A stretch of 64,000 nucleotides of DNA from Bradymonadia bacterium (GCA_049318805.1 JBMOFP010000001.1:61247-125246), one strand, 5' to 3'. Positions 7,198-57,480 are shown, counted from the first letter of the stretch. The notes: generated by a model not told the origin, from the letters alone. Numbers and translations are program-made.

Positions 7198-7204
7198 GCG
7201 CCCC

Positions 7205-39346: not shown

Positions 39347-39355
39347 AGTTGGAGA

Positions 39356-40039: not shown

Positions 40040-40060
40040 AGGCCGCGTCGGCGGGGCGAC

Positions 40061-43000
40061 TCAGAGCCCGGTTTCGAAGTCCGTGCGGGTGCCGAAAGCG
40101 AAGAGGGTGTAGGTCGCGCCGGGCTCGAGCGCCCCGTCGAAGCGGCAATGCACCACGCGGCCGTCCAGGTCGCCGCGCGCGCACTCGAGCCCGACGACCC
40201 CCGGCCCGCGCAGCGCGACCGCGAGGTCTTCGACCGGGGAAACGCGCAGGAACGTCAGCGCCGGGGTCAGGGCCGAGATCGGGCCGTCGTCGAGCGCGGG
40301 TTGCGTCGTGAAAGCGTCGGGCGGCCCCACGGGCACGACCGTTGGTGAGACCAGGGCCTGCTGCGCCGGCACATAGCGCCGCTCGACCGGACCGCGCTCG
40401 TCGAAGACCGTGCACAGTCGGTCCGTGGCCGCGCCGTTCCAGAACACCCAAACCGGGGCCTCTCCGTAGGCGGCGCTCGTGGGGCAATCGCTCCACAGGT
40501 CGAAGCGTCGCGGACCTACGGCGGCGCGGGCATGGGCCTCGTACCAGGTCAGCCCGCCGGTGGCCGTGTCCAGGGCGACCGCGCTGTTCTCGGCGAGCAG
40601 CGGCTCGAAGGTGTCCAGCACCCCGGCGGGATCGATCAGAGCCAGGTACCCGAGCACGACATTCGCCAGGTCTGGCCCCATCTGCGTGTAGGTATTCGGC
40701 GCATTGCCCTGGGTCGACAGCCAATCGGCGCGGTCCGCCATCATCGCGCCGTAGCGGGCCGCGCCGGCCGCGGGCTCCTCGCCCAGGTACTCGAGGAACG
40801 GCGAGACCGGGAGCCACTGGATGCCGAAGATCCACCCCGGGTCCGCGCTGAAGTAGGTCGCGAAGGCCTGCCCCCAGGCGCCGAGGATGCCCACGGTCGC
40901 GTGGGTGTAGGTCTCGGGCCAGACCGGCGGACACGCAGCGCACGCCCCGAGCCAGTACGTGAGCGTGGCCGCCCGTTCCATGGCCCACCCCATCGCGCCG
41001 GTCGCGCGCAGGGTGGAGTCCTCGAGGGCCTCGCCCAGCAAGAACAAGCCGCCCCAGGACTGCATGGCCTCGGAGCTCGACTCCTGGTTGTTGCCGCGCG
41101 GTGAGCCGAGGCCCGCGGCCCAGGAGTGCCCGAGCCAGGGGTCGAAGGTGCGCAGGAAGGGCGCATCGAGCGCGTCGCGGTCGGCGTTTCCGTAGGACCG
41201 GGCGACGGCGCGCAGCGCGCGGCCGAAGCGCTCCAAGAACTCGGGCTGAGCCAGCCCGAGGAGCGCGCCGGCGGTGGTGAAGTCGCCGTAGTGGAAGTGC
41301 TGGTCGGTGAACTGCTCGGAGCCGTACGCCGGGTCGAAGCCGATGAGCGCGCCCCAGCGCGGGTATTGGGCGAAGTAGCGCCGGGTCTCACCCGGGGTGA
41401 AGGTGAGCCAGTCCGCGAGGACCTCCGAGAGCTGCTCTACGAAAGGCGCGGCCTGCTCGGGTGCGGACTGTCGAGCCGCGTGGAGCCAGCGCGCGAGCAC
41501 GACCATGGCCTTACCGCCCCAGTAGGTGTCCCCGGGGGTCTCCCCGGCGGCCGCCTGACGCGTGAGGTAGTCCGTGAGACGTTCGACGTTGAAGCGCGGG
41601 TCGGGCGCGCCGGCGTTGGGCGGGGGCACGAAGGGCGCCAGGCCCTTGAAGGGGAAGGCGAGCCGAAACTCGGTGCCGCGTGCGAGGCGGAGCGGGCCGC
41701 GCGAGGTCGGGTAGCTCGCGTCGAGGGTCTGGAAGTTCCCGCGCGCCATGCCCAGATGGTGCGGCAGCCACCCCTGCATCGCGGTCGGCTCACCGACAGC
41801 GCCGGGGAGCGCCTCGAGGTCGAGCGTCCACGTCGTTTGGACCTCGCCGCGCGCGGGCACGTGCTCCCAGGACAAACGCGAGCCGCGCGGCACGAAGGGC
41901 GCGGCGGCCTCGAAGTCCGCCCGCGTGAGCCCGTTGGGCACCGCCGCCACCGCGACCCAGCTCCCTTCAGGCGGGAAGGTGATCCGTGTGTCCGGGCCGT
42001 CCGCGGCGCGGACCACCCCCGGGCCATCGAAGAACGCCCAGGTTCGGCTGAACTGGCGCACCTCGAGGGCGTTGACCAGACCGGGCATCCGCAGCGTCAC
42101 GTCGCGGGCCTCGAGCCACACGAACGGGAGGCCGTGGCCCAGCGTCACGTCCACCTGGGTGCCCCAGCGGAGCCCCACGGTCCAATCGCCCCATCGGGCG
42201 ACCTGGGTCTCCGCGATACGGGGCGAGACGGGCGCGGCGTACGCGCTGTCCGCGCCCCCGAGCAGGACCTCGTCGAGCAGGATGTGCCCCCAGCCCCGCG
42301 GGTGCGTGTCGACCAACTCCAGCACGGCGTCGAGTCCGCGCGCGTTCTCGGGGATGGGGATGGACTGCCACGCCAGGGCCTCGGAGTTCAGGCCCGTGCG
42401 CCACCCCAGGCGCTCGACCGGGGTGCCCGCGTCGTTCACCCGCCAGAGCGAGACCGTGCACTCGCCCTCGGGGTCTTCAGGGGGGTGATTGCCGCCGCCC
42501 ATCAACAGGTGAACGGCGTCGCCGTCGAGGGCGAAGACCGTGGAGCGAATGCGCCCCTGGCTCGGATCGCCGCCGTGGAAGCTGCTCAGCAGCGCGTTCC
42601 CGCGGTAGCCCGAGACCGGACTCTGGCCCGGCAACGTGCCGGCGGCGGGACCTTCCCCGAACGCGGTGCCCGCCAGGGCCTGCCACCCCAGCCTGCCGTC
42701 GTCGGCGCGTCCGTCGAAGGCGCCGTCCTCGAAGTCGGCGAGCAGTCGCTCGTCGGCGGCGGGTGTGGCGGGACGGTCCAGGGCGAGCACGAGCGGGGAC
42801 TCGAGGCGCATCGCGGTGCCGTCCTCGTTCCACGCCAACGGCTGGAAGAGGCGCACCGCGTCTGGTTCAGTCCGCACCACCAGAGGGTGCGCCCACAGCT
42901 CGCCCGAGTGGGCGTCGACCAGGGCCTGGGTCCACCAATCATTCGTGGGGTAGGGCCCGGGTGTGCCCTCGACGACCTTGATGCGGCCCTCGGCCACGGT

Positions 43001-43486
43001 GCGCGCGACAGGCACCTCGCCTGCCTGCGGGCCCTCGGCGAAGCTGGGCGGCCCGCACTCCGGCGCGTCCGCGCGATAGACACCGTCGCCGCACCGTGCC
43101 TCGGCACAGGCGTTGGTGCAGCTGTCGTGGTCGTCGTGGTCGCCGTCGTCGCAGGCCTCGGGAGGGTCGATTCGACCGTTGCCGCACAAGGACCACACCG
43201 CGACCACCGCGCCGGGCGGCGGGAACGGCTCCGCGTCCGGGGCGGTGGCGTCCGCGGGCGTCGAGGCGTCCGGACTTCCGTCCCCTTGGGCGTCGGCGGG
43301 GACCGCGAGCGCGTCCGTCCGCGGTGACGCATCGAGCGGCGGCGCGGCGTCTTGCGCCGGCGGCCCCTGGTCGCGGCGCGCCGCGTCGTCGGCACCCGGA
43401 CCTCGGTCGGAGGTTTCATCGCCCGCACCGCAAGCGCCGAGCGCCAGCGCGCCCGCCAGACCGACGATGCGGGGCGACCCTCTCAA
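40061..43486 (-). CDS. GH81 endo-beta-1,3-glucanase lipoprotein with myxobacterial Cys-rich repeat and inserted CBM-like module
   Basis: Lipobox LGAC, CGNG..EACDDG repeat, PTNDWW, DTYWGGK, catalytic DQHFHYG and NQESSSEA, and GIQWLP. Confidence 0.9.
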   Translation of the reverse strand: MRGSPRIVGLAGALALGACGAGDETSDRGPGADDAARRDQGPPAQDAAPPLDASPRTDALAVPADAQGDGSPDASTPADATAPDAEPFPPPGAVVAVWSLCGNGRIDPPEACDDGDHDDHDSCTNACAEARCGDGVYRADAPECGPPSFAEGPQAGEVPVARTVAEGRIKVVEGTPGPYPTNDWWTQALVDAHSGELWAHPLVVRTEPDAVRLFQPLAWNEDGTAMRLESPLVLALDRPATPAADERLLADFEDGAFDGRADDGRLGWQALAGTAFGEGPAAGTLPGQSPVSGYRGNALLSSFHGGDPSQGRIRSTVFALDGDAVHLLMGGGNHPPEDPEGECTVSLWRVNDAGTPVERLGWRTGLNSEALAWQSIPIPENARGLDAVLELVDTHPRGWGHILLDEVLLGGADSAYAAPVSPRIAETQVARWGDWTVGLRWGTQVDVTLGHGLPFVWLEARDVTLRMPGLVNALEVRQFSRTWAFFDGPGVVRAADGPDTRITFPPEGSWVAVAAVPNGLTRADFEAAAPFVPRGSRLSWEHVPARGEVQTTWTLDLEALPGAVGEPTAMQGWLPHHLGMARGNFQTLDASYPTSRGPLRLARGTEFRLAFPFKGLAPFVPPPNAGAPDPRFNVERLTDYLTRQAAAGETPGDTYWGGKAMVVLARWLHAARQSAPEQAAPFVEQLSEVLADWLTFTPGETRRYFAQYPRWGALIGFDPAYGSEQFTDQHFHYGDFTTAGALLGLAQPEFLERFGRALRAVARSYGNADRDALDAPFLRTFDPWLGHSWAAGLGSPRGNNQESSSEAMQSWGGLFLLGEALEDSTLRATGAMGWAMERAATLTYWLGACAACPPVWPETYTHATVGILGAWGQAFATYFSADPGWIFGIQWLPVSPFLEYLGEEPAAGAARYGAMMADRADWLSTQGNAPNTYTQMGPDLANVVLGYLALIDPAGVLDTFEPLLAENSAVALDTATGGLTWYEAHARAAVGPRRFDLWSDCPTSAAYGEAPVWVFWNGAATDRLCTVFDERGPVERRYVPAQQALVSPTVVPVGPPDAFTTQPALDDGPISALTPALTFLRVSPVEDLAVALRGPGVVGLECARGDLDGRVVHCRFDGALEPGATYTLFAFGTRTDFETGL

Positions 43487-43495
43487 CTCAAGGGC

Positions 43496-45211
43496 TCACG
43501 GGCAGAGACCGCAGGACCCGTAGGTCTCTTGCAGGGCGGTGGGGCCCTCGATCTGCACGAGGCGGTTCGCGTAGTTCGCGTAGTCCGTCACCGGGGCGCA
43601 CTGACCGCCGGCCACCATGTCGTCGATCAGGTTTTCCTGATTGGCGAAGTTGTCGACCATGTACTTGTACTCGAGGGCACCGGCCGCAAACGGGAAGGTA
43701 CCCGTCCACAGGCCGTCTCCGTCTTCATCGGTCAGGTCGAAGCCGCGGTCGCAGAAGCCGCAGAACGGCCCGGTCACGTGCACGGTCTGGAAGGCCTCCA
43801 GGCCCGAGCACCCCATGTCGAGAGAGAACGTGACGTTGAAGAGACAGGAGCCGTCGTCGCGGTCCGCGGCGGCGTTGTAGTTCGTGGCGTCCGGGTTCGT
43901 GCAGCCGCCGACACCTGCCGGGGGCGCGCACACCGAGCACTCCCCGTAGAGCGCGTCGACCTGGGTCGGGCCGTCCACGATGACCTGCCGGTTGGCGTAC
44001 ACGGCGCCGTCGGTGATGGGCGCGCACGCCCCGTCGCCGGCGATGACGTTGTCGACCAGGTCCTCCTGGCTCGCGAAGTTGTCGACCATGAACTTGAACT
44101 CGACCGGGCCGTTCGGGAACTGGAACGTGCCCGCCCAGAGGCCGTCACCGTCCGGATCGGCGAGCGCGAAGCCCTGGTTACACCAGTTGCAGAACGGACC
44201 GGTGATGTAGGGCGTCGTGAACGCCTGGCCGCTGCAGGTCATGTTGACGGAGAAGGTCACCGGGTAGGTGCACGCTCCGTCGTCCTCGTTGGCTGCGGGG
44301 TTGTAGTTGCCGGCGGTCGGGTCGGTGCAGCCCCGAACCGGGAGCAAAGGCGGCGCGTCGGCGCGCCACTGCACGTCGTCCAGGTAGAACGTCACGGTCT
44401 CGGCGCCGCTCGGGTTGTCGACGAACCACGCGAAGCCGCCGACGATCTCCTCCACCGCGAGGTCGCCGAGCACGAGGGCCCACTCGGTCGCCTCGGCGGG
44501 CAGGTAGGTGTAGCCCGACGAGATGGAGAAGCCGTCCACGTCCTGGATGCCGACCGCGAAGTTCACGTGCTCCGTGCCCGTCGCGCCCCAGGCGTTGAAG
44601 CGCACGTGGGTGGCCCCGGGCTGCACGGGGAGGCCCGGCAAGTCGCCCCAGTTGTTGGCGGGGTACTGGAAGAAGAAGCCGACGAAGCCCGCGCCCGCGG
44701 GGGTCCAGGTGATGCGTCGGCAGGTGCCGCTCGGGTCGCCGGCCTCGACGTCGCAGTCTGCGACCTGGACGTCGCCGTCGCCCATCTTGCCGCTCATGAC
44801 GTAGTAGTCATCGATGAAAAACGGGAGCGCGGCCGGGAGGTCAGGGACCGGCGTGCCGCCGGGCTCGGGGGTGCCGCCGGGCTCGGGCGTGCCGCCGGGC
44901 TCGGGTGTGCCGCCGGGCTCGGGCGTGCCGCCGGGCTCGGGTGTGCCGCCGGGCTCGGGGGTGCCGCCGGGCTCGGGTGTGCCGCCGGGCTCGGGTGTGC
45001 CGCCGGGCTCGGGTGTGCCGCCGGGCTCGGGTGTGCCGCCCGGTTCAGGCGTACCGCCGACCGCCCCGTCGAGGCTGACGGAGCCTCCGGTGGTGCCGCC
45101 GGTGGGGTCATCGCCGCCCCCGTCGTCCTCACCACAGGCTCCGACGGCCAGCGCCAGGGCCGCGCATACGACCCGCTCGAAGACAAACTTGCCGCTTCGC
45201 TGCTTCATCAC
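43496..45211 (-). CDS. Multi-module putative glycan-binding lipoprotein
   Basis: Lipobox VGAC, (GGTPEP)n linker, one SG.MGD..QYP..NWG module, two GCT.P.A.NY..A..DDG.C units and two CBM48-like modules (VTFS..M..GPFC..D.DGDGLW.GT..E.K). Confidence 0.75.
   Translation of the reverse strand: MMKQRSGKFVFERVVCAALALAVGACGEDDGGGDDPTGGTTGGSVSLDGAVGGTPEPGGTPEPGGTPEPGGTPEPGGTPEPGGTPEPGGTPEPGGTPEPGGTPEPGGTPEPGGTPEPGGTPVPDLPAALPFFIDDYYVMSGKMGDGDVQVADCDVEAGDPSGTCRRITWTPAGAGFVGFFFQYPANNWGDLPGLPVQPGATHVRFNAWGATGTEHVNFAVGIQDVDGFSISSGYTYLPAEATEWALVLGDLAVEEIVGGFAWFVDNPSGAETVTFYLDDVQWRADAPPLLPVRGCTDPTAGNYNPAANEDDGACTYPVTFSVNMTCSGQAFTTPYITGPFCNWCNQGFALADPDGDGLWAGTFQFPNGPVEFKFMVDNFASQEDLVDNVIAGDGACAPITDGAVYANRQVIVDGPTQVDALYGECSVCAPPAGVGGCTNPDATNYNAAADRDDGSCLFNVTFSLDMGCSGLEAFQTVHVTGPFCGFCDRGFDLTDEDGDGLWTGTFPFAAGALEYKYMVDNFANQENLIDDMVAGGQCAPVTDYANYANRLVQIEGPTALQETYGSCGLCP
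44851..45059 (-). repeat. 18-bp tandem repeat encoding GGTPEP, about 11 units
   Basis: Near-perfect gtgccgccgggctcggg array. Confidence 0.95.
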
Positions 45212-45236
45212 GCCTCCCCAGGCCCGGAAATCGGCC

Positions 45237-45261
45237 TTTGTTTGTTCGACAGAGAAACTAA
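45237..45261. promoter_or_regulatory. Putative ROK (XylR-type) operator 1
   Basis: TTTGTTT-N11-AAACTAA, an AT-rich 25-bp palindrome in the divergent intergenic region near a ROK gene. Confidence 0.65.
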
Positions 45262-45371
45262 GTTCGTCGGCCGGAACGTGTCAAGTCGGCGTCGAGGTTG
45301 TGACGCAGCGCGTCAAGGTGCGCACAGGGTGCGTCGATGAGACGTCGGCTTGACCGATGCCCTGTGGCGAA

Positions 45372-45396
45372 TTAGATTGTTCACGAACAGAACAAA
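45372..45396. promoter_or_regulatory. Putative ROK (XylR-type) operator 2
   Basis: TTAGATT-N11-GAACAAA, with the same 25-bp geometry, ending 10 bp before ATG 45407. Confidence 0.6.
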
Positions 45397-45406
45397 GTGG
45401 GGTGCC

Positions 45407-46765
45407 ATGCGAAACCATCAGCGTTGGGTCTCCAGCTGGATGTGGACGGGCCTTGGCCTCGCGGTTGTCGGATGCGGTGGAGACGCCGCTTCAGGCTCGG
45501 TCGCCTGCGGCGCCGGCACGGTGCGCTCCGGCGACCAGTGTGTCCCGGTCTCCCCGACCGACGACGCCGGCCCGGGCGGCGGCGAGCCGGGCGGCGGCGG
45601 CGAGCCGGGCGGCGGCGGCACACCGGGCGGCGGCGGCAACCCCCAGGGGGGCGGCGAGCCGGGTGGCGGCGGCGATCCCCAGGGCGGTGGTGATCCCCAG
45701 GGCGGCGGTGATCCCCCGGGCGGCGGCGACCCGGGCACAGGCGGCACCCCCGGCGGCGATGCCCTCCCGCTCACCCTCGACGACTTTTTCGCCCCCAGCG
45801 GCTTCATGGGGGACGGTGAGCAGCCGGGCGGCATCTCGGTCGTCGACTGCGTGCCCGAGGGCGACGCGGTGGGCGCATGCCGGGCCTTCACCTGGACCCC
45901 CGGTGCGATGGGCTGGGCCGGGGTCTGGTGGCAGTACCCGGAGGGCAACTGGGGCGGCCCCGATGGCTTGCCGGGCTTCGACATGCCGCCGGGCGCGGCC
46001 CAGGTCTCGTTCCTGGCGTGGGGCGAGCGCGGCGGCGAGGTCGTGAGCTTCGGTGTCGGCCTCGGCGACGTGGATGGTTTCTCCCGCAACCTGCCCGACG
46101 TCACCCTCGAGGCGACGCCCACGCGATACCGGATGGACCTCCGGGGCGTCGAGTACGAGGACATCGTCGGTGGCTTCTCGTGGGTCGCCGGCGGGTCCGC
46201 GGCCCCCGTGACGCTCTACGTGACGGACATCCATTGGACCGACAGCGTCGAAGGCCTCTCTGCGGAACCCATCGGGGACGCCCTGCCCTTGCCCGTGGTC
46301 GTGGACGACCACTGGTCGCCCTCCGGTTTCATGGGGGACGGCGAGCAGCCCGGCGGCATCGAGGTCGGTGAGTGCGACGAGCGCGGCGCCGCGGACGCAG
46401 CGGGTGTGTGCCGCCGCTTCCAGTGGAACCCGGGCCGGAACGGCTGGGCGGGCGTCTTCTGGCAGTACCCCGAGAGCAACTGGGGCGCGTTGCCCGGTCG
46501 CGCCATCGCCCCGGGCGCGACGGAGGTGAGCTTCCTCGCGTGGGGCGAGCTCGGCGGTGAGGTCGTGAGCTTCGGGGCGGGCATGGGTGACGTGGACGGC
46601 TTCAACGCCGCGCTGCCGCAGGTCGTCCTCGAGGCCACGCCGACGCCCTACACGATCTCGCTCGCCGGTCAGACCTACGACGAGGTCGTCGGCGCCTTCA
46701 CGTGGACCGCGAACGAATCCGCCGCGCCCGTGGCCTTCTACATCGACGACCTCCGCTGGCGATGA
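45407..46765 (+). CDS. Lipoprotein with two tandem uncharacterised Trp-rich (CBM-like) modules
   Basis: Lipobox VVGC, Gly/Pro repeat linker and a duplicated PSGFMGDGEQPGGI..GWAGV.WQYPE.NWG..VSFLAWGE.GGEVVSFG module. Confidence 0.8.
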   Translation: MRNHQRWVSSWMWTGLGLAVVGCGGDAASGSVACGAGTVRSGDQCVPVSPTDDAGPGGGEPGGGGEPGGGGTPGGGGNPQGGGEPGGGGDPQGGGDPQGGGDPPGGGDPGTGGTPGGDALPLTLDDFFAPSGFMGDGEQPGGISVVDCVPEGDAVGACRAFTWTPGAMGWAGVWWQYPEGNWGGPDGLPGFDMPPGAAQVSFLAWGERGGEVVSFGVGLGDVDGFSRNLPDVTLEATPTRYRMDLRGVEYEDIVGGFSWVAGGSAAPVTLYVTDIHWTDSVEGLSAEPIGDALPLPVVVDDHWSPSGFMGDGEQPGGIEVGECDERGAADAAGVCRRFQWNPGRNGWAGVFWQYPESNWGALPGRAIAPGATEVSFLAWGELGGEVVSFGAGMGDVDGFNAALPQVVLEATPTPYTISLAGQTYDEVVGAFTWTANESAAPVAFYIDDLRWR

Positions 46766-48018
46766 ACGACTCGCCTCAGTTCGCGGCGTTCCGGCAGTCC
46801 CCCGTGGACGTGACCGGCATGCGCTCGCGCAATCGGACCTTCGTGCTGCAGCTTCTGTGGCGCGCCCGGGAGCTCTCGCGCGCCGAGCTCTCGCGGCGCA
46901 CGGGCATGAGCCGGTCCTCGGTTTCGTCGTTGGTGAGCGAGCTGCTCGACGCCGGCCTTGTCGAGGAGACGGGCACCGGCGAATCGAGCGGCGGCCGACG
47001 ACCGATTCTGCTGCGATTCCGCGATGATGCGTGTCTCATCGCCGGACTCGACATGGGCGCGACGCACATCGCCTGTGCCTTGACGGACCTGCGCGGGAAC
47101 GTGGTCGCTTGGCGCCAGACGGCTTTCGACGCCCGTTCGAATCCGCTGGGCGCTCTCGACGAGTGCGAGGCGCTGGTGGACGCCTGCCTGGACGCGCGCG
47201 GCCTACGGCGGTCTGCCCTCGCGGGCCTCGGGCTGGCCGTCCCGAGCCCCGTGGACCCGCGCGCGCCGGGGCGCCTGGCACCGATGATCCTGCCCGCCTG
47301 GACCGGGTTGGACGTCCATGAAGCGCTGAAGGACCGCTTTGTTCTGCCGGTCGTGATCGACAACGACGCCAACCTCGGTGCGCTGGCGGAGCGTTGGTGG
47401 GGCGCCGGCCGCGGTGGGGACGACCTCGTTTTCATCAAGCTCGGCACGGGTGTGGGTGCGGGCTTCATCCTCAACGGCGAGGTGTACCGCGGGGCCTACG
47501 GCATCGCCGGGGAGCTCAGTCACCTGAGCCTGGGGCCCCAGGGTCCTCCGTGCGCGTGCGGTCAGCGGGGGTGCCTCGTACGGCTCATCGGCGCGCGTGC
47601 GCTGCACGACCGTGCGCTCCAGCGTTTGTCGCACCATCCCGAAACGGTCCTCCGGCGGGACGGACTCACCGTCGATGCCCTGGTGCGCGCCGCCCACGCG
47701 GGGGACCCGCTCGCGCTCGAGCTGACCCGCGAGCTCTCGAGAGACCTCGGGAGCGGGATCATTGGCCTGTTGAATTTGATGAGCCCGGCGATCGTGGTGA
47801 TCGGCGGGCAGCTCTCGCTTCTGGGTGATCTGCTGCTCGAACCTCTGCGAACCCACGTGCGCCAGCGAACGCTCTGGCCCAACCTGGGGGAGACGCCCAT
47901 CGTCGTCAGCGCGCTCGGTCAGCGCGCGATCGCGCTGGGCGCGGCGACGGCCTTCCTCGCCGAGGTCCTGAAGAACCCTGAGCTCCTCCCCTTTGCGTCG
48001 AGGTGGGCACCCCCATGA
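46762..48018 (+). CDS. ROK-family transcriptional repressor (XylR/NagC type)
   Basis: N-terminal HTH (SRAELSRRTGMSRSSVS), GGRRP, DNDANLGALAE, GTGVGAG and GELSH..CACGQRGCL; ATGA overlap. Confidence 0.93.
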   Translation: MNDSPQFAAFRQSPVDVTGMRSRNRTFVLQLLWRARELSRAELSRRTGMSRSSVSSLVSELLDAGLVEETGTGESSGGRRPILLRFRDDACLIAGLDMGATHIACALTDLRGNVVAWRQTAFDARSNPLGALDECEALVDACLDARGLRRSALAGLGLAVPSPVDPRAPGRLAPMILPAWTGLDVHEALKDRFVLPVVIDNDANLGALAERWWGAGRGGDDLVFIKLGTGVGAGFILNGEVYRGAYGIAGELSHLSLGPQGPPCACGQRGCLVRLIGARALHDRALQRLSHHPETVLRRDGLTVDALVRAAHAGDPLALELTRELSRDLGSGIIGLLNLMSPAIVVIGGQLSLLGDLLLEPLRTHVRQRTLWPNLGETPIVVSALGQRAIALGAATAFLAEVLKNPELLPFASRWAPP

Positions 48019-48887
48019 CCAAGAGAGATTGGGCCGTGGGCGTCGGCGTGAGCGCCGCGCTCCTTGCCTGTGGTGGACCGGATTCGGCGGGTCGGATCGA
48101 GGGAGACGAGCCCGCCAGTGTGCCGCCTCCCGCGGACGACGGCTCTCGCCCAGGCTGGCGTCTGGTCTGGCAGGACGAGTTCGATGGCCCCGCGGGCACA
48201 GCGCCGGATGCCGCACGCTGGACCCCCGAGGTCGGCGGTGACGGCTGGGGCAACGAGCAGCTCGAGCACAATACCGACCGCACCGACAACGCCGCGCTCG
48301 ATGGCGACGGCCGGCTCGCAATCACCGCCCGACGCGAGTCGTATCGGGGCAACACCTATACCTCGGCGCGCCTGTCGACGCGCGCCAAGTTCGAGAAGAC
48401 CTACGGGCGCTTCGAGGCGCGGGCGCGCATGCCCATCGGGCAGGGCATGTGGCCGGCGTTCTGGCTGCTGGGGGGCGACATCGGCGAGGTCGGCTGGCCC
48501 GCGTGCGGGGAAATCGACATCCTCGAGTACAAGGGCCAGGCGCCCTCGATCGTTTACGGCACGGTCCACGGCCCCGGCTACAGCGGCGCCTCGGGGGTCG
48601 GCAAGGAGCAGCCGATCTCCCGCACCGACCTCAGCGAGGACTTCCACATCTACGCGGTCGAGTGGACCCCGGACCGGATTCGTTGGTTCGTGGACAGCTT
48701 CATGTTCCACGAGCTCACCCCCGACGACCTGCCCCCGGGCACACGGTGGGTCTTCGACCACGACCACTTCATCATCCTGAACCTCGCCGTGGGCGGGCGT
48801 TTCGTCGGCCCGCTCGGCCCCGACGTCGTTTTCCCGCAATCCCTGCTCGTCGACTACGTCCGGGTCTACGAGAAGACTGAACAGTAA
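48015..48887 (+). CDS. GH16 laminarinase-type endo-beta-1,3-glucanase lipoprotein
   Basis: Lipobox LLAC, WQDEFDG, GWGNEQ, YTSARL, WPAFWLLG, catalytic EIDILE and LNLAVGG. Confidence 0.93.
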   Translation: MTKRDWAVGVGVSAALLACGGPDSAGRIEGDEPASVPPPADDGSRPGWRLVWQDEFDGPAGTAPDAARWTPEVGGDGWGNEQLEHNTDRTDNAALDGDGRLAITARRESYRGNTYTSARLSTRAKFEKTYGRFEARARMPIGQGMWPAFWLLGGDIGEVGWPACGEIDILEYKGQAPSIVYGTVHGPGYSGASGVGKEQPISRTDLSEDFHIYAVEWTPDRIRWFVDSFMFHELTPDDLPPGTRWVFDHDHFIILNLAVGGRFVGPLGPDVVFPQSLLVDYVRVYEKTEQ

Positions 48888-48942
48888 AGCGTCCATCGGG
48901 CCCCCGATGGCCCGCTCACCCTCGCTCAGGAGAGCCATCTTG

Positions 48943-50304
48943 ATGCTACGCCGTTTCCCCGACGGGTTCCTCTTCGGCGCCGCCACCTCGTCCTACCAGA
49001 TCGAGGGCAGCACCGAGGTGGACGGGCGAGGGCCTTCCATCTGGGACACCTTCTGCGCCCAGCCCGGGCGGATCAAAGACGCGACGAACGGCGCGCGCGC
49101 GTGTGAGCACTACACCCGCATGCCCGAGGACGTCGCGTTGATGGCCGAGCTCGGCCTGAAGGCATACCGGTTTTCGGTGGCCTGGCCGCGGATTCTACCG
49201 GAGGGCCGCGGGCGCGTGGAGCCGCGCGGACTCGCGTTCTACGACCGGCTCGTCGACGCGCTCCTCGAACGGGGCATTCAGCCCTGGTGCACATTGTACC
49301 ACTGGGACCTGCCCGACGTGCTGGAGCGGGCGGGCGGCTGGCCCGAGCGCCCGATCTGCGACGCCTTCGTGGAGTACACCGACGTCGTCACGCGGCGGCT
49401 CGGCGACCGGGTCAAGCACTGGATCACCCACAACGAGCCGTGGTGCATCGCCATGCTCGGCTACATGACCGGAGAGCAGGCGCCGGGCTATACCGACTGG
49501 CCGAAGGCCCTGCGCGCCGTGCACCACGTGCTGCTCTCTCACGGGATGGCCGTGCCCGTGGTGCGCGCGAACAGCCCCGGCGCGCAGGTCGGTATCGTCG
49601 TCAACCTGTGCCCGGCCGAGCCGGCCTCTCCGAGTGACGCGGACGCCGACGAGACCCGCGCCTTCGACGGCTTTTTCAACCGCTACTATCTCGACCCGGT
49701 CTACGGGCGCGGCTACCCGAAGGACGTGCTCGAGGACTACGTGCGCAAGGGTCACATCCCGTCGACGACCCTCGACTGCGTGCGCGAAGGCGACCTCGAG
49801 ACCATGTCGGTCAAGACGGACTTCCTGGGCATCAACTACTACTCCCGGGCCGTGATCCGGAGCGACCGGGTGCCCGAGAGCGAGAACGCGCCGCGCACGG
49901 TCTTCCAGAGCGACGACAAGACGGACATGGACTGGGAGGTGGCTCCCGGGAGCCTCACGAAGGTCCTCGAGCGGGTGCACCGCGACTACGCGCCGCCGGC
50001 GTTGTACGTGACCGAGAACGGCTGCGCCTACGCCACCGCCCCGGACGCGGAGGGTCGAGTTCTCGACACCCAGCGCGTGTCCTACTTCATGAGTCACATC
50101 TCCGCGTGCCACGACGCGATCGAACGCGGCGTGCCGCTGAAGGGCTACTTCGCGTGGTCGCTCTTGGACAACTTCGAATGGGCCTGGGGCTACGAGAAAC
50201 GATTCGGGCTGGTCTGGGTCGACTACGAGACGCAGCAGCGTGTGCCGAAAGCCAGCGCATGGCTCTACCGCCGCATCATCGCCCAGCACGGGGTCGAGGC
50301 GTGA
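48943..50304 (+). CDS. GH1 beta-glucosidase (cytoplasmic)
   Basis: ATSSYQIEG, YRFSVAWPR, TLYHWDLP, acid/base NEP, nucleophile TENG and WSLLDNFEW; no signal peptide. Confidence 0.96.
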   Translation: MLRRFPDGFLFGAATSSYQIEGSTEVDGRGPSIWDTFCAQPGRIKDATNGARACEHYTRMPEDVALMAELGLKAYRFSVAWPRILPEGRGRVEPRGLAFYDRLVDALLERGIQPWCTLYHWDLPDVLERAGGWPERPICDAFVEYTDVVTRRLGDRVKHWITHNEPWCIAMLGYMTGEQAPGYTDWPKALRAVHHVLLSHGMAVPVVRANSPGAQVGIVVNLCPAEPASPSDADADETRAFDGFFNRYYLDPVYGRGYPKDVLEDYVRKGHIPSTTLDCVREGDLETMSVKTDFLGINYYSRAVIRSDRVPESENAPRTVFQSDDKTDMDWEVAPGSLTKVLERVHRDYAPPALYVTENGCAYATAPDAEGRVLDTQRVSYFMSHISACHDAIERGVPLKGYFAWSLLDNFEWAWGYEKRFGLVWVDYETQQRVPKASAWLYRRIIAQHGVEA

Positions 50305-53300
50305 GCGCCGCGCCGTCGCGTTTGCTCGGCGTAGGCTTGCTGCTCGGCGCGCAGCTCGCGTCGGCCCAGGAGGCGCCGCCGCCGGCCTCCGAGGCGCCTC
50401 CGCCGGCCTCCGAGGCGCCGCCGCCGGCCACCGAGGCGCCGCCGCCGGCCACCGAGGCGCCGCCGCCACCCGTGGTCCAAAGTGAACCACCCGCCCGCGA
50501 CCCGCGCGCGCCGGACGAGGTCCGCGTGCACAAGGACGACGCAGGCTGGCAACTGCGCGTGAACGGCCGGCCCTTCATGGTCTTCGGCATGAACTACGAC
50601 TACATGCCGGTCGGCGAGAACTACGCCTACGACTTCTGGGGCAAACCCCGGGAGTTCATCCGCGAGGCCCTGGACCGCGACATGTCGCTGTTGCGCGACA
50701 TGCATGTGAACGCGATCCGGCAGTACGCCGACATCCCGCCGGAGTGGGTCACCTACATCTACGAGACCTACGGCATCTTCACGATCATCAACCACACCGT
50801 CGGTCGCTACGGTCTCTCCGTGGGCGGCGCGTGGCAGCCGAACACCGACTACGCCGACCCCGAGACACGCCGCCAGCTCAAGGCGGAGCTCGCGGGGGTC
50901 GTCTCGCGGTACCGAGACACACGCGGCGTGCTGATGTGGATGCTCGGCAACGAGAACAACTACGGCCTGCACTGGACCTCTTTCGAGATCGAGAATCTGC
51001 CGACCGCGCAGCACGACATCGCGCGGGCCACGCCGCTCTACTCGCTCTTTGGCGAGATCATCGACGAGATCCACGCGCAGGACCCGCATCGCCGCCCCGT
51101 CTCCATCGCGAACGGCGACCTCGGCTACATCGACCTCATCGCCCAGCACTGCAAGAACCTGGACATCATGGGGTCGAACGTCTACCGCGGCATCTCGGCG
51201 GGGGACCTCTACGCCGTGGTGAAGGCGAAGCTCGGGGTGCCCGTGATGTACACGGAGTTCGGCTCCGACGCGTACAACGCGCGCGACATGCGTGAGGACC
51301 CGGTCATGCAGGCCCACTACCTGCGCGGGCAGTGGCAGGAGATCTACGAGCAGTCCGCCGGGAAGGGCCGCGAGGGCAACGCCATCGGCGGCATGATCTT
51401 CCAATGGTCCGACGGGTGGTGGAAGCACCTGCAGAACGAGCGCCTCGACATTCAGGACACGACCGCGAGCTGGGCGAACGGCGGCTACCCGCTGGACTTC
51501 GTCGAGGGCGGCAACAACATGAACGAGGAGTGGTTCGGCATCACGGCGAAGGACCGGACGGACTCGCGCGGTCACTACATCGTCCGACCGCGCGCGGCGT
51601 ACTACCTGCTCCAGGAGGCCTTCCGACTCGACCCGTACGCGCCGACCACGGACCAGGCGGCCATCCGGGCCCACTTCGGCAAGCTCTCGCCCCAGAACTT
51701 CCTCGCGCCCTACACCGCGGACCGCGGCGACGCGCGCTTGGACGAACTCGAGAAGCTGAGGGTGAGCCAGCTTCGGTTCGAGCTCGAGACCTACACGACC
51801 GCCGGCTCCAAACAGACGGAGCGCGGGACCGACGCGGTCTTCGACCACATGGAGTCGATGTACGTCGGCGTCGCCGCGCGCCCCAGCGACCAGGTCGAAG
51901 CCGAGCTCGTGCTCAATGTGCTCGGCAACGTGCCCACGAACCGACTGGACGACATCTTCTACGAGAACCGAGGGGAACGCCGCACGCTGCTCGACGAAGA
52001 CGGACAGCCCGTCGAACTCGAGGGCGGCGAGCGGGTCGCCATCTACAGCGCCGAGTTCCGCGTCGAGGACCCCTGGTTCTCCGCCCACGGCTTCTACCGG
52101 GTCGGGCACACCCACTGGGGCTACGAGGGTGACTTCTTCGGCCTGTACCCCGAGGCGTTCTACGGGGAGAACATCGACCAGTACAACGGCAAGGCGCCGC
52201 TGGGCGTCGAGGTGACCGGCAAGCAGGGGCTCGAGGGCTTCAAGCTCGCTTTCGGCCCCGAGCTCTACTGGGGCGCGAACCCCGCAGTGATCGTCAAGTA
52301 TCGACGGAACGTCGGGGGGGCGACCCTGACCGCGGTGCACCAGGAGGACATCGCCAAGAAGGGTCGAACGGAGTCCACGGTGGCCGTGCCCGAGCGTCGG
52401 ACCCGGCGCAGCACGCTGCACGGGGAGCTCATCCGCGGGGGCCTGAAGCTGGAGCTCGGCGGGATCTTCGCGGGCTCGGAGCGGGTCGGGATGGACTTCC
52501 AGTGGACCCGGGACAGCGATGGCCGGGGCTACCTCGACAGCGGCTACGACGTGCTCGCCGACGAGGTCGTCTGGGCCGACACGCTGGGCGGCAAGGCGAA
52601 GGTCAGCCTCACGGTCGGGCAGTTCAACTGGTACGCCCAGGGGGCGTATCGGGGCCTCGTGGCCGACGGTGGCCCGGACCAAACGCTGACGTTCGCCGGC
52701 TGGGGGCTGAAGGAGAGCGGCCGCGGCAATCAATGGAACACCTTGACCGGCGTGCTGGTGCATTTTGCACCGTTCCAGGTCGGCGTGAACGCGCAGTACC
52801 AGCGGCCGCTCGTTGGACCCATGCCGGCCGTGGGCGACCACATGAGCGACGCGACGGGCATCTACTACCCGTCACTCACGCCTCGCAATTTCCGGGACGA
52901 CCCGTTCGCGGTTCTCGACAACCGGGAGCAGGCCGCGGCCGAGCTCCTGCTCGTGTACGACCCCACGCCGGGCACCTGGTTCTGGGCCTGGGACAACGAC
53001 GACCGCGAGGACGCACGCTTCGCGGCGTCTCTGGACTCGGTTTACCGCAAGCGTTTCACACGGCGGGACTCCGTCTTCTACGTGAGCGAAAGCGGGCAGT
53101 TCCAACCCTTCGGCGCCTCGCCGCCGCAGCAGGACACCTGGGATGTCATCGGGCGCATCGTCTCTCGACCCGGTGGTGCATGGCGCATCATCGGCCACCT
53201 GCACGCGGGGCAGGGGGAGGCCAGCGGCGCCGAGAGTCGAGGGGCGCTGCGGATGAGCGAGCGCCTCGCCGTGCAGTGGAACGGCTGGCGTGTCTCCCAG

Positions 53301-53555
53301 ACCGTGAAGATCGACGACTGGGGCCCCTATGACTTCCATCGCGACTTCGACCTGACCTATCCGTTGCAGGTCTATGGCGACCTGTCCTGGGGCGTGCGCT
53401 CGGGCCTGCTGAACGGAGACCTCGTCCGCTTCGGCGTCCGGGGCCAGTACCGCACGCTGGACGAGAACAGCACGGGCTTTGCCGTCGAGACGCCCGCCCC
53501 GGGTGCCGCGGCGAACGAGTGGGAGTTCGGTACCTACATGCACGTGGGGCTCTGA
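50301..53555 (+). CDS. Secreted clan GH-A (GH2-like TIM barrel) glycosidase fused to a probable outer-membrane beta-barrel
   Basis: Signal peptide and EAPPPA linker; NAIRQY, GNENNYG and TEFG motifs; about 600 C-terminal aa of amphipathic strands ending WEFGTYMHVGL. GTGA overlap with GH1. Confidence 0.75.
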   Translation: MSAAPSRLLGVGLLLGAQLASAQEAPPPASEAPPPASEAPPPATEAPPPATEAPPPPVVQSEPPARDPRAPDEVRVHKDDAGWQLRVNGRPFMVFGMNYDYMPVGENYAYDFWGKPREFIREALDRDMSLLRDMHVNAIRQYADIPPEWVTYIYETYGIFTIINHTVGRYGLSVGGAWQPNTDYADPETRRQLKAELAGVVSRYRDTRGVLMWMLGNENNYGLHWTSFEIENLPTAQHDIARATPLYSLFGEIIDEIHAQDPHRRPVSIANGDLGYIDLIAQHCKNLDIMGSNVYRGISAGDLYAVVKAKLGVPVMYTEFGSDAYNARDMREDPVMQAHYLRGQWQEIYEQSAGKGREGNAIGGMIFQWSDGWWKHLQNERLDIQDTTASWANGGYPLDFVEGGNNMNEEWFGITAKDRTDSRGHYIVRPRAAYYLLQEAFRLDPYAPTTDQAAIRAHFGKLSPQNFLAPYTADRGDARLDELEKLRVSQLRFELETYTTAGSKQTERGTDAVFDHMESMYVGVAARPSDQVEAELVLNVLGNVPTNRLDDIFYENRGERRTLLDEDGQPVELEGGERVAIYSAEFRVEDPWFSAHGFYRVGHTHWGYEGDFFGLYPEAFYGENIDQYNGKAPLGVEVTGKQGLEGFKLAFGPELYWGANPAVIVKYRRNVGGATLTAVHQEDIAKKGRTESTVAVPERRTRRSTLHGELIRGGLKLELGGIFAGSERVGMDFQWTRDSDGRGYLDSGYDVLADEVVWADTLGGKAKVSLTVGQFNWYAQGAYRGLVADGGPDQTLTFAGWGLKESGRGNQWNTLTGVLVHFAPFQVGVNAQYQRPLVGPMPAVGDHMSDATGIYYPSLTPRNFRDDPFAVLDNREQAAAELLLVYDPTPGTWFWAWDNDDREDARFAASLDSVYRKRFTRRDSVFYVSESGQFQPFGASPPQQDTWDVIGRIVSRPGGAWRIIGHLHAGQGEASGAESRGALRMSERLAVQWNGWRVSQTVKIDDWGPYDFHRDFDLTYPLQVYGDLSWGVRSGLLNGDLVRFGVRGQYRTLDENSTGFAVETPAPGAAANEWEFGTYMHVGL
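50370..50471 (+). repeat. 21-bp tandem repeat encoding EAPPPA[ST], about 5 units
   Basis: Repeated gaggcgccgccgccggcc units. Confidence 0.9.
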
Positions 53556-53558
53556 CCG

Positions 53559-54152
53559 ATGCGGAACAACCTTCGAGTCTGTCTTTTCACGGCCGTGGTC
53601 GCCTCGAGCTGCGCCGAGCCCGCCGAGTTCGTGTACGGCGAGCGGGTCACCGACCTCGTCTTCGAGCTGTGCGACCCGACCATGGGTGTGCATCCGAGCC
53701 GCACGGTGCTCGCGTGCCCGGCGAACCCCTTCCTGGGCGGGGTGGGGGCCGAGACCAAGTGGAGGATCCAGACGGCCGGAGGGCCCGTGGCGGCGTTCTA
53801 CGCGTGGGCCACGATCCTCGCGAGCGAGGCCACGGGCGAGCACCAGTACTATGCCGCCACGAACCTGAAGGAGATCTTCCAGGGGGCCGAGGCCGACCAG
53901 GAGGACCTCGAGCGTGTGCGTGAGATGGCCATCGCGGGCTTCCAATCCGTGCTCGACAACTTCCCCGAGTCGAACTCTTTCGACGCGACCGGCACCGTGG
54001 CGTTTCGCCTCGCGACGCCGGCCTACCGGGGCATCGTGGAGCTCGGCGGGCGACCGGCGGGCGGTTGGGTGATCGTCGCCACGGCAGACGCCGGCGAACA
54101 GGCCGTGCGCATCGGGCAGGACGTGCCCGTATTCGAGGAGGAGACGCCATGA
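53559..54152 (+). CDS. Hypothetical lipoprotein of the glucan locus
   Basis: Lipobox ASSC, helical core; starts 3 bp after the barrel gene. Confidence 0.7.
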   Translation: MRNNLRVCLFTAVVASSCAEPAEFVYGERVTDLVFELCDPTMGVHPSRTVLACPANPFLGGVGAETKWRIQTAGGPVAAFYAWATILASEATGEHQYYAATNLKEIFQGAEADQEDLERVREMAIAGFQSVLDNFPESNSFDATGTVAFRLATPAYRGIVELGGRPAGGWVIVATADAGEQAVRIGQDVPVFEEETP

Positions 54153-54838
54153 AGCGCGCGCGACTGCACACTCACTTCGGCCTCCTCGCGCTCCTCGTCG
54201 GCTTCGGCTGCCGACCCGACCCCGGCGCCGAGGACTACGCGAGCCAGGAGGCGTTCCGCTTCGACGCGGGTGATCCGCGCCCCGAGGCCTACGTCGAAGG
54301 GCCGGACCCCTGGCGCGAAGGCGAGCCGCGCTTCGGGCTCGGGCTGTTCTACGAGGACGGCCGTACCGAAGAGGTCGTCATCGACGACGTCGCCGCACAC
54401 TTCTACATCTACGAGAATACGTTCACCGTGGTGGCTGCGGACAATGGGCAGCGAGAGGGCCTGTCGGTCGACCAGATCGTCCACGCGGGCACGCCGTGGT
54501 GGGGCGGGGGCGTTCACCTCGAGGCACCGCGAGACCTTTCGGCGTGGAAGACCCTGCACGTCTCGCTTCGGTCGTCAGATGGTGCGTTTCGCACCGTTTC
54601 CCTCGGCATGACGAGTGGCGCCGAGGGCAGCCCGGACAACGCCTCGGCGAGCGTCGACGCGACCGAGTACGGCTACGAGAACGACGGCCGCTGGCACGAC
54701 CTGAAGATCCCGATCGCGGACCTCGTCGCGAAGGGGCTCGACCCCGCGGCGGTGACGGTCGTGCTGCTGCTCGGCGGCGGCAGCGGGACCACGGCGGAGT
54801 CGCTGGCGATCGACGCGCTGTACCTGACTCAGGACTGA
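54149..54838 (+). CDS. Lipoprotein with galactose-binding-like/CBM module
   Basis: Lipobox GFGC; WWGGG..PRDLSAWKTLHVSL, DGRWHDLKIPIADL..GLD and IDALY pattern typical of CBM11/CIA30-like jelly rolls; ATGA overlap. Confidence 0.7.
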   Translation: MKRARLHTHFGLLALLVGFGCRPDPGAEDYASQEAFRFDAGDPRPEAYVEGPDPWREGEPRFGLGLFYEDGRTEEVVIDDVAAHFYIYENTFTVVAADNGQREGLSVDQIVHAGTPWWGGGVHLEAPRDLSAWKTLHVSLRSSDGAFRTVSLGMTSGAEGSPDNASASVDATEYGYENDGRWHDLKIPIADLVAKGLDPAAVTVVLLLGGGSGTTAESLAIDALYLTQD

Positions 54839-54848
54839 CGACGCGGGT

Positions 54849-56968: not shown

Positions 56969-57109
56969 GGCGGAGGCGATACACCGCCGCCGACGCCCCT
57001 GCAAGGACCTGTTGACGGCCAAGGACTACGCTGCCCCGGCGAGTCTCGCGGGGAATCGCCGGAAAGTCCCCGGCGCGGTGCCCGCGTCCTGCGACCTCCC
57101 GTTGTGAGC

Positions 57110-57376: not shown

Positions 57377-57480
57377 GCGACTCTCCTGCGAGGGGGGCGC
57401 ACAGCATAGCGCGGTCCGGCGGTCGCGGCGCGGTGAAGGCCGTGCTTGTCCACGGGGGCGCGTGTCGCCATGCTTCGCGC

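Follow-up and report, generated by a model that had tools for sequence, protein, structure and literature searches.

A beta-1,3-glucan locus of a Bradymonadia bacterium and a widespread glycoside hydrolase/beta-barrel fusion that may be its outer-membrane component

How could beta-1,3-glucan be brought through the outer membrane by a bacterium whose glucan genes lie beside no TonB-dependent receptor, SusD or sugar carrier? The question is raised by nine genes at positions 40,061 to 54,838 of a 64,000-nucleotide stretch of DNA from Bradymonadia bacterium (GCA_049318805.1 JBMOFP010000001.1:61247-125246), here called the window. On balance, we favour the view that they form a ROK-repressed system for the utilisation of beta-1,3-glucan, be it algal laminarin or chrysolaminarin or the wall glucan of fungi and oomycetes, working by the mechanism proposed below; among its products is a protein predicted to join a catalytic domain of glycoside hydrolase (GH) clan GH-A to an outer-membrane beta-barrel. 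Laminarin-type glucans are among the largest aquatic carbon fluxes, and the passage of glycans across the outer membrane outside the SusC/SusD paradigm is poorly known. The enzymes and the ROK logic of the locus are of known kinds; new here are the family of outer-membrane fusions and the conserved lipoproteins that accompany it, the replacement of SusC/SusD by this family and a probable operator shared across phyla. Our search of the literature, with subscription journals and supplements lying outside it, found no described fusion of a glycoside hydrolase with an outer-membrane barrel.

Genes in the window (~70% G+C) were chosen by the G+C content of third codon positions (GC3), and 47 open reading frames (ORFs) were picked across its whole length. 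The nine genes of the locus each occupy the GC3-favoured frame, with third-position GC of 0.83-0.92, the competing overlapping frames showing a shifted GC pattern. The features are as follows, CBM standing for carbohydrate-binding module and AF2 for AlphaFold2.

40061..43486, minus strand: GH81 endo-beta-1,3-glucanase lipoprotein, 1141 aa (PF17652, TIGR02232 and PDB match; GC3 0.91)
43496..45208, minus strand: left-arm lipoprotein, 570 aa (translation; AMPK1_CBM/CBM48-like match)
45242..45260, no strand: degenerate copy of the palindrome below, a candidate second operator (read from the sequence; weak alone)
45350..45378, plus strand: sigma-70-like promoter match TTGACC-17-TAGATT of the right arm (consensus match only)
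45377..45395, no strand: perfect palindrome TTGTTC-N7-GAACAA, probable ROK operator (counts in the genome and in related loci)
45407..46765, plus strand: right-arm tandem-module lipoprotein, 452 aa (AF2, VIA, Foldseek)
46762..48018, plus strand: predicted ROK-family repressor, winged helix-turn-helix plus sugar-kinase-like sensor domain (PF00480 and helix-turn-helix matches)
48015..48887, plus strand: GH16 laminarinase-type endo-beta-1,3-glucanase lipoprotein, 290 aa (PDB matches, PF00722)
48907..50304, plus strand: cytoplasmic GH1 beta-glucosidase, 465 aa, without signal peptide (TIGR03356, PF00232)
50301..53555, plus strand: fusion of a GH-A TIM barrel with a C-terminal beta-barrel, 1084 aa (from GTG 50301) or 1098 aa (from ATG 50259) (AF2, Foldseek)
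53559..54152, plus strand: Lp8, small lipoprotein, 197 aa (BLASTP cluster of 15)
54149..54838, plus strand: Lp9, lipoprotein, 229 aa, with an Exop_C-type CBM-like module (Exop_C, hhalign)

The genes lie in two divergent arms. On the minus strand the left-arm lipoprotein is followed after 9 nt by the GH81 gene, and on the plus strand the tandem-module lipoprotein, ROK, GH16, GH1, fusion, Lp8 and Lp9 genes succeed one another with three ATGA overlaps (46762-46765, 48015-48018, 54149-54152), one GTGA overlap (50301-50304), and gaps of 19 nt between GH16 and GH1 and 3 nt between the fusion and Lp8. Lipoboxes are present in the GH81 protein, the left-arm and right-arm CBM lipoproteins, GH16, Lp8 and Lp9, and the export signal of the fusion protein is of the signal-peptidase-I type (Sec). 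An earlier annotation made from the DNA alone (the sequence-only reading) had proposed this arrangement, with the families and overlaps named here, and the nine GC3-supported ORFs, their Pfam and NCBIfam matches and the junctions bear it out. It had also noted that no TonB-dependent receptor, SusD, ATP-binding cassette (ABC) or major facilitator superfamily (MFS) gene is present; in agreement with this, a Pfam scan of 39 of the 47 window ORFs (the eight left out are all shorter than 110 aa) gave no match to TonB_dep_Rec, Plug, CarboxypepD_reg, SusD, sugar ABC or sugar MFS families. Among the scanned ORFs, only a Na/sulfate-citrate symporter (17196-18677) and a channel of the Castor/Pollux type resembled transporters.

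The predicted structure of the fusion protein agrees with the architecture that the sequence-only reading had assigned to it. The AF2 model, built with 23 homologues (mean predicted local distance difference test score, pLDDT, 80.8), places in succession a short hairpin, a (beta/alpha)8 barrel at residues ~113-460, a helical linker at 466-497 and ~26 long strands at ~500-1097; the protein also contains a Pro-rich linker. Pfam matches the 1149-aa ORF to Glyco_hydro_2_C (PF02836; 2.8e-05, 23.8 bits against a cut-off of 21) at residues 150-290 only, and the protein does not qualify as a GH2 enzyme: no N-terminal sugar-binding or Ig-like domain was matched by Pfam, and the model shows nothing more than the short hairpin before the TIM barrel. 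The top ranks of Foldseek are taken by GH158 (9oro, 8.9e-13; BuGH158 6pal, 2.3e-11) and GH157 (4.3e-11), followed by GH2 enzymes. VIA-align, run with the whole 1098-residue model against 48,161 chains, gave alignments that span the catalytic domain only, the highest identity being 24% over 308 aligned residues to GH158 9oro. The catalytic glutamate pair, E232 (GNEN) and E333 (TEFG) in the numbering of P0001, is invariant in 23 sequences, and the glutamates of the NE and TE(F/W)G motifs align with those of BuGH158. GH158(Pro) (9oro; PMC13195107), like BuGH158 (6pal) and the GH157 enzyme LaGH157, shares with the fusion the GH-A (beta/alpha)8 fold, an N-terminal hairpin and the aligned Glu pair (NE acid/base, TE-aromatic-G nucleophile); the sequence similarity is marginal, and the solved enzymes, in contrast to the fusion, have ~400-530 aa, are soluble or lipid-anchored and are barrel-free. 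On these comparisons, the catalytic domain is a distant GH158/157-like member of clan GH-A that is filed in no family.

The barrel does not qualify as a TonB-dependent transporter, as neither a plug nor PF00593 was found in it by Pfam, NCBIfam or a search of the whole genome with PF00593. We also considered whether the fusion might be GluM, the outer-membrane glucanase of Corallococcus sp. EGB, with which it shares the combination of a myxobacterial outer-membrane beta-barrel and a glucanase (here predicted), and rejected this identity as improbable. Oar of Myxococcus xanthus is presumably a TonB-dependent-receptor-like protein. GluM is described in PMC6971385 as the homologue of Oar and a beta-1,6-glucanase, whereas the fusion has a clan GH-A TIM barrel and is without TonB_dep_Rec, CarboxypepD_reg or other receptor-type Pfam domains; the two are set apart here by description and domain content. 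With respect to the gene itself, three of four public runs have a G at position 50259, where the upstream ATG lies. Public contigs of all four runs break at 45575-45620, in the linker rich in Gly and Pro of the tandem-module lipoprotein, and at 50390-50460, in a PPPA(S/T)EA repeat of the fusion; both result from assemblies stopping at low-complexity repeats, not from structural variation.

The availability of many related genomes allowed us to assess how far the fusion is spread. Among 8000 scored candidates, 4741 proteins belong to its family at E<=0.001, many with ~50% identity over the full length, and databases list them simply as 'GH2 TIM-barrel domain protein', 'beta-galactosidase' or 'hypothetical'. 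In contigs representing one genome per species, 599 of 603 pattern matches encode a fusion relative, so the family is present in at least 599 species genomes. The closest homologues are from Myxococcota, and the 80 best fusion loci all come from diderm phyla, their titles naming Myxococcota, Krumholzibacteriota, Gemmatimonadota, Latescibacterota, Eisenbacteria, Fibrobacteraceae, Ignavibacteriales, Rhodothermales, Balneolales and Bacteroidota, the last including Flavobacterium, Chryseobacterium and Bacteroides cellulolyticus. Within the phylum to which the window belongs the family is patchy, with at least 23 of 201 sampled genomes and at least 5 of 11 from the same taxonomic family carrying it, figures that are floors on account of a stricter first look.

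Neighbours were counted by tblastn in flanks of up to 10 kb around the 80 best loci, and as many contigs are shorter than this, the counts are floors as well: GH16 was found in 51 of the 80, ROK in 30, GH1 in 24, Lp8 in 18, Lp9 in 16, CBM lipoproteins in 6 and GH81 in 1. Transporters also recur beside the fusion, namely an MFS_2-type protein in 34 loci and a family-5 binding protein, detected with a query of the type found at locus L004, in 11. A further count, of 13 of 80 with the binding-protein query from L045, is unreliable, since the first ~180 residues of that query are the out-of-frame 3' end of GH16; an apparent binding-protein remnant inside the GH16 gene of our own genome (C1:109752-110123) is an artefact of the same query. 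L045 is from Myxococcus sp. Y35, and a locus titled Comamonas sp. KCTC 72670 (L047) is near-collinear with it, most of its genes having identical coordinates, at ~69-70% G+C; the organism name may be wrong. GH3, GH149 (6hq6, E=0), GH30, GH17 and GH81 are also among the neighbours, and in Gemmatimonadota loci GH3 lies directly 3' of the fusion gene. One locus from the same taxonomic family as our genome (L086, genome G111, ~1291-7629 on the minus strand) has a compact ROK-GH16-GH1-fusion-Lp8-Lp9 operon and, divergent from it, a long array of at least eight repeats of a CBM48/20-like module such as occurs in the left-arm lipoprotein.

In the Bacteroidota carriers the order is a BguR-like Y_Y_Y regulator, the fusion, a lipoprotein of 436-969 aa, GH16, GH149, a ~420-aa protein, GH30 and MFS_2; with GH17 added, the regulator, GH16, GH149, GH30 and MFS genes make up the same set as in the BguR laminarin polysaccharide utilisation loci (PULs) of Flavobacteriia. 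In the 19 loci L062-L080 (Bacteroidota, Balneolales, Melioribacteraceae), the fusion gene follows the Y_Y_Y regulator wherever the latter is present, and in all 19 no TonB_dep_Rec, Plug or SusD match was obtained in the scanned ORFs of at least 300 aa; these ORFs were picked mechanically, 56 of 111 being scanned first and then the remaining ones of at least 300 aa. In canonical laminarin PULs, BguR is encoded immediately upstream of SusC/SusD, as stated in bioRxiv 10.64898/2026.01.10.698779. Since the BguR-like gene here is followed by the fusion instead, the SusC/SusD slot of Bacteroidota-type loci is taken by the fusion gene together with a lipoprotein that bears a CBM; the C-terminal module of this lipoprotein shares homology with Lp9 (hhalign 92.8%, E 4.1e-07). 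The label 'SusC/SusD-free' that the sequence-only reading gave to the locus is therefore true, but is to be expected outside Bacteroidota, and the remarkable part is that the fusion replaces SusC/SusD even within that phylum.

That the substrate is a beta-1,3-glucan is indicated by enzymes assigned with strong scores. The GH81 protein, which combines a lipobox (LALGAC|G) with a myxobacterial repeat that is acidic and rich in Cys (TIGR02232) and a GH81 core at ~430-920, matches PF17652 (1.4e-30, 107.2 bits against a cut-off of 25.6) and the solved endo-1,3-glucanases 6fop (1.3e-50, residues 505-918) and BhGH81 5t49 (9.1e-42); the PF17652 and 6fop scores indicate a family core that includes the C-terminal (alpha/alpha)6 domain. 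GH16 matches PF00722 (3e-24) and, among solved structures, the laminarinases 3atg (8.6e-73) and 3azx (4.2e-69) as well as 2hyk (2.3e-70), and its catalytic motif GEIDILE aligns to GEIDIME, as in GH16 laminarinases of the GH16_3-like kind. GH1 exceeds the equivalog cut-off for beta-glucosidase (TIGR03356, 603.9 bits against 478.5) and matches PF00232 at 6.9e-156. That GH16 and GH1 adjoin without a cassette between them is no artefact of assembly, as the junction is spanned by single contigs in four runs from as many studies (X1 47431-50398, X2 48347-49609, X5 45676-50398, X6 45608-50398).

Three of the four non-catalytic lipoproteins, namely those of the two arms and Lp9, have CBM-like beta-sandwich folds; the suggestion of four binding partners is to be qualified for Lp8, which is without such a fold and has a weak TPR-like lead. 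The right-arm protein combines a lipobox, a linker rich in Gly and Pro and two beta-jelly-roll modules in tandem (AF2 pLDDT 95.2). Its VIA matches are the ExoP C-terminal domain (3f95, Z 13.0, root-mean-square deviation 2.9, 138 aligned), CBM30 (2c24, Z 11.8), CBM29, CBM11 (1v0a, Z 11.6) and BtSGBP-B (7kwc, Z 10.6), and BtSGBP-B is also its top Foldseek match (7kwb, 9.3e-09), the modelled architecture resembling that of a surface glycan-binding protein B. Its module matches no Pfam family even at E 5 and is rare: the length range that was searched yielded 40 proteins at E<=1e-05, of which one is fused to GH16 (P0141) and one carries a GH2-type TIM barrel. The left-arm protein comprises, besides its lipobox and (GGTPEP)n linker, one module homologous to the right-arm modules, in keeping with its clustering with the tandem-module lipoprotein by BLASTP, and two CBM48/CBM20-like modules (AMPK1_CBM ~9.5e-07, X25 0.0034); before each of the latter, at ~295-315 and ~455-475, we observed a Cys-bounded motif, C-T-[DN]-P-x-A-x-N-Y-N-x-x-A-x-x-D-D-G-x-C, which was placed in no family. 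Lp9 carries a galactose-binding-like/Exop_C-type module (Exop_C 4.2e-04 to 5.4e-04, below the cut-off; 9.3e-14 for the L034 homologue). Profile comparison linked the tandem module neither to Lp9 nor to the Bacteroidota lipoprotein, and did not link Lp8 to the latter. Lp8 belongs to a BLASTP family of 15 in which the lipobox Cys is invariant, and in Myxococcota-type loci it always lies directly 3' of the fusion gene; no Pfam or NCBIfam family matched it, and its atlas lead, to proteins of TPR-like kind at 0.86-0.88, falls short of the level required to count.

In the Bacteroides 1,3GUL, which comprises GH16/GH158 endo-glucanases, SGBP-A/SusD, SGBP-B, SusC and GH3, surface endo-beta-1,3-glucanases are likewise combined with non-catalytic surface glycan-binding lipoproteins and a GH158-like catalytic fold; its BtSGBP-B, the protein to which the tandem-module lipoprotein is matched, recognises beta-1,3-glucan specifically and bears tandem CBM-like beta-sandwich domains on long linkers, according to PMC7974029. 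Our locus differs in that it is without SusC/SusD or a TonB-dependent transporter, in that the GH158-like domain is fused to a barrel of ~600 aa, in that the regulator is a ROK protein and not a hybrid two-component system, and in that the final hydrolysis would be carried out by a cytoplasmic GH1. It is not a Sus-like PUL, as no adjacent SusC-like and SusD-like pair was found at the locus among the scanned window ORFs or in the genome search with PF00593.

Regulation by the co-encoded ROK protein, also part of the sequence-only reading, is supported by both its domains and a conserved palindrome. The protein matches PF00480 (2.4e-56) and has MarR/IclR-type helix-turn-helix matches at residues 43-93, its NagC/Mlc-like scores lying below the equivalog cut-offs. 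The region between the arms, 198 nt long, holds the sole sigma-70-like match of 39900-57400 (one found, against a shuffle mean of 0.5), and the 19-bp palindrome overlaps the -10-like hexamer of this right-arm promoter match, so that a winged helix-turn-helix, a ROK domain and a palindrome near a predicted promoter, the features by which a ROK repressor is recognised, occur together. The palindrome is present as a single exact copy in the 6.5-Mb assembly, where other spacers give 0-4 matches; a one-mismatch copy on contig C3 was considered as a further operator and is taken as chance, being located inside an 828-aa ORF. In the 80 related loci, the arms with a spacer of 7 have 65 matches (at most one arm mismatch), 27 of them exact, whereas the other spacer lengths between 3 and 11 have 1-6 each, and at least one match is present in 47 loci. 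Measured from the extrapolated starts of locus genes, 39 of the 65, belonging to 38 loci, are no more than 250 nt away (the fusion in 26 cases, GH1 in 8 and ROK in 3), and 45 extend to TTGTTCG...CGAACAA. In loci with a BguR-type regulator the palindrome was not found, save for one mismatch match. Nearly identical DNA occurs in 20 runs of 17 studies labelled as lake-water or freshwater metagenomes; no RNA data set was among those listed for the stretch, from which nothing follows about expression. In lake populations the arms are kept and the spacer bases 45383-45384 vary. The degenerate copy at 45242..45260 has two arm mismatches and lies ~35 nt upstream of the left-arm start codon.

TTGTTC-N7-GAACAA is thus probably the operator of the co-encoded ROK repressor, as judged from these counts and positions and from the fact that ROK regulators bind palindromes. 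The operon of BglR in Thermotoga maritima, where there is no outer-membrane barrel component and no CBM lipoprotein, reportedly also contains a GH16 laminarinase and an oligopeptide-type ABC transporter. BglR is a ROK repressor of laminarin and beta-glucoside use that is encoded within its own operon, binds a palindromic operator and is released by glucose and cellobiose (PMC3553997); the ROK protein of our locus would bind and be released in a comparable way. The operators themselves are unrelated, an AT-rich 23-mer in Thermotoga and TTGTTC-N7-GAACAA here. As a third type of regulator for the core, a sigma-54 activator with Reg_prop/Y_Y_Y repeats is encoded upstream of the fusion at 5704-8904 of L034, a locus from Latescibacterota.

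The inner-membrane carrier is reasonably sought elsewhere in the genome, as had been suggested. In Myxococcus sp. Y35 and Corallococcus terminator, a cassette of SBP_bac_5, permease and ATPase genes lies between GH16 and GH1, and likewise the closest relative found, G121, whose fusion is 74% identical, has an Opp-type ABC cassette there; this cassette is missing from the junction in the window, and G111 has the same compact form. At L004 an MFS_2 gene and another family-5 ABC operon follow downstream. On its 9.4-kb contig C208, our own genome (391 contigs, 92.7% complete) encodes an orthologue, with 61% identity, of the binding protein linked to L004, in an operon with two permeases and an ATPase, which makes this operon a candidate for the importer. 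Directly upstream of it lies a gene for a 1026-aa protein (L084/C208 97-3177), possibly a further enzyme or binding protein, which matched neither a Pfam family nor a PDB sequence and has no counterpart by homology in any of the 80 related loci. The MFS_2 protein of L004 was not matched in our genome, where PF13347 gave a sub-threshold match only, and at 92.7% completeness this does not imply absence.

Building on the gene content, the folds, the synteny across phyla, and the conservation and placement of the palindrome, we infer substrate binding, channel function, glucanase topology, the identity of the importer and the effector, and propose the following mechanism. The left-arm and tandem-module lipoproteins and Lp9 would hold glucan at the cell surface through their CBM-like modules, and the GH81 and GH16 lipoproteins would cut it there into oligosaccharides. 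The fusion, probably with Lp8 and Lp9, would be the dedicated outer-membrane component, its barrel letting the oligosaccharides pass without SusC/SusD or TonB, while its tethered GH158/157-like glucanase would trim them in transit. An ABC importer with a family-5 (oligopeptide-type) binding protein encoded elsewhere, for which the C208 operon is the candidate, would take in di- and trisaccharides, GH1 would release glucose in the cytoplasm, and glucose or a beta-glucoside would free the ROK repressor from its site between the arms. The channel role in this scheme is suggested by the barrel being the only outer-membrane barrel encoded in any scanned locus, by the position of SusC/SusD that the fusion takes in Bacteroidota, by the conservation of the barrel, which is about that of the enzyme domain, and by the simple lipid anchor that all other exported proteins of the locus use.

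A stronger version of this proposal would make the fusion a TonB-independent glucan translocon that replaces SusC/SusD in more than 10 diderm phyla: an import pore of ~26 strands, gated by Lp8 as LptD is by LptE, with a glucanase at the periplasmic mouth whose cutting of the entering chain would rectify diffusion, so that hydrolysis and not proton-motive force would drive uptake. Solved GH158 relatives are processive on beta-1,3-glucan, according to PMC13195107. We consider this version unlikely. For the association of Lp8 with the barrel, which our main proposal also includes, a three-chain complex prediction (barrel residues 498-1098, Lp8 and Lp9, with Lp8 scored) reached 0.57, compared with 0.28 for the best of three controls, namely the one with another protein in place of the barrel, with at least 92% contact agreement between runs and partner pLDDT of at least 81. 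In the calibration, 116 of the 157 solved complexes and 2 of the 215 mismatched pairs attain the mark applied, and those attaining it with scores of at most 0.60 comprise only 18 of the 157 solved complexes and both passing mismatches; our run differs from the calibration in its own alignments and in having three chains.

Several observations weigh against the proposed system or parts of it. The complex score is a weak pass only and lends weak support to a barrel-Lp8 complex. The barrel itself has a sole structural match, to the barrel of BtuB (8p98, 2.2e-09, Foldseek rank 43), and the family profile finds no solved outer-membrane protein at E<=1 among PDB sequences. For the catalytic domain, GH5, GH2, GH158 and GH157 are tied in VIA-align within Z 25.8-26.3 (26.3, 26.2, 25.9 and 25.8 for the top matches), and the profile scores for GH2 1yq2 (2.1e-06), GH158 6pal (2.5e-06) and 9oro (2.8e-06) are equally marginal, for which reasons the assignment of a substrate to the fusion rests mainly on genomic context. 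In the AF2 model, 2-3-residue turns follow the even strands of the barrel and long loops the odd ones; by our reading of this pattern, strand 1 would begin on the periplasmic side, and the glucanase domain would by default also be periplasmic, unless the helix at 483-497 threads the pore. Di- and trisaccharides could pass general porins, and the search with PF00593 detected 11 TonB-dependent receptor genes in our genome, all on contigs other than the 136-kb contig C1 that carries the locus; of the complete capture-cut-import-regulate system that had been envisaged, the import step is an inferred one. No operator was found in the 96 nt upstream of the C208 operon to the contig end, and it is therefore orthology only that ties this operon to the locus. 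Finally, the nine genes had been taken as one system, while GH81 (1 of 80 loci) and the CBM lipoproteins (6 of 80), and with them the left arm, lie outside the conserved core and are lineage-specific additions.

Some of these points would fit a different role for the barrel, namely that of a mere membrane anchor displaying the glucanase at the surface, with uptake left to general porins or to one of the TonB-dependent receptors encoded elsewhere. This is the main rival explanation and, while unlikely, has to be taken seriously, given those receptor genes and the fact that products of GH16 and GH81 can be porin-sized, given the size limits of porins. It would leave unexplained why a barrel of ~600 aa is maintained about as well as the catalytic domain, with full-length identities of 45-57% across phyla and invariant columns throughout, when the other exported proteins of the locus are anchored cheaply by a lipobox. 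Furthermore, no other outer-membrane transporter is encoded in the scanned loci, including all 19 of Bacteroidota type that have the fusion in the SusC/SusD position, and a domain N-terminal to a barrel is normally periplasmic and thus ill-suited to surface display, according to our reading of the model and to the topology of LptD, BamA and TonB-dependent transporters.

A second possibility concerns not the barrel but the purpose of the locus, which might mainly be a predation weapon that lyses fungal or oomycete walls, like GluM, and not a means of feeding on dissolved glucan. The myxobacterium-like genome (TIGR02232 repeat, closest homologues in Myxococcota) and the action of GH81 and GH16 on wall beta-1,3-glucan are compatible with this, and glucanases in myxobacterial predation on fungi are described in reviews (PMC10800785, PMC6971385). 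Nevertheless, the cytoplasmic GH1 and the sugar-sensing ROK protein, to which relatives add ABC or MFS importers and a GH149 phosphorylase, indicate a system built for assimilation, the same core is present in non-predatory phyla, and the occurrence in lakes and freshwater would make algal storage glucan a plausible substrate. We therefore regard predation as improbable as the main role; the two roles are not mutually exclusive, and predation is compatible with the mechanism without being its core. Highly improbable, in our view, is that the fusion exports or remodels a beta-glucan exopolysaccharide of the cell itself in the manner of the cellulose, alginate and Pel systems, in which a porin is typically paired with a periplasmic hydrolase for secretion: there is no glycosyltransferase, synthase or polysaccharide co-polymerase beside the fusion in the window or in the scanned loci, and its conserved neighbours are all catabolic or uptake genes.

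Some observations were made on the genes flanking the locus. At 57244-60204 on the plus strand, 2.4 kb downstream past two minus-strand genes, lies a gene for a GH31 alpha-glucosidase-like lipoprotein (its lipobox reads VALAAC|G and it probably starts near 57481; NF007746 429 bits, below the cut-off of 553), which is probably outside the beta-glucan system because an alpha-linked substrate is indicated. The minus-strand ORFs at 54849-55646 and 55538-57022 have GC3 of 0.77-0.79 and no Pfam family, the former showing a weak match to the N-terminal helix of the myxobacterial type IV pilin PilA (7.3e-06). On the other side, the minus-strand gene at 36686-39346 encodes an 886-aa protein consisting of a Ser/Thr protein kinase and a C-terminal FGE-sulfatase (formylglycine-generating-enzyme-like) domain, and next to it, at 39335-40039, is a 234-aa lipoprotein-like ORF of no family.

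The tandem CBM-like module, matching no Pfam family, is a candidate for a new CBM family, and the conserved ROK operator provides a testable regulon signature across phyla. If the barrel is indeed the route of import, the fusion would represent a second general design for glycan capture, and its gene would serve as a marker for users of beta-glucan that are missed by PUL predictors based on SusC/SusD.

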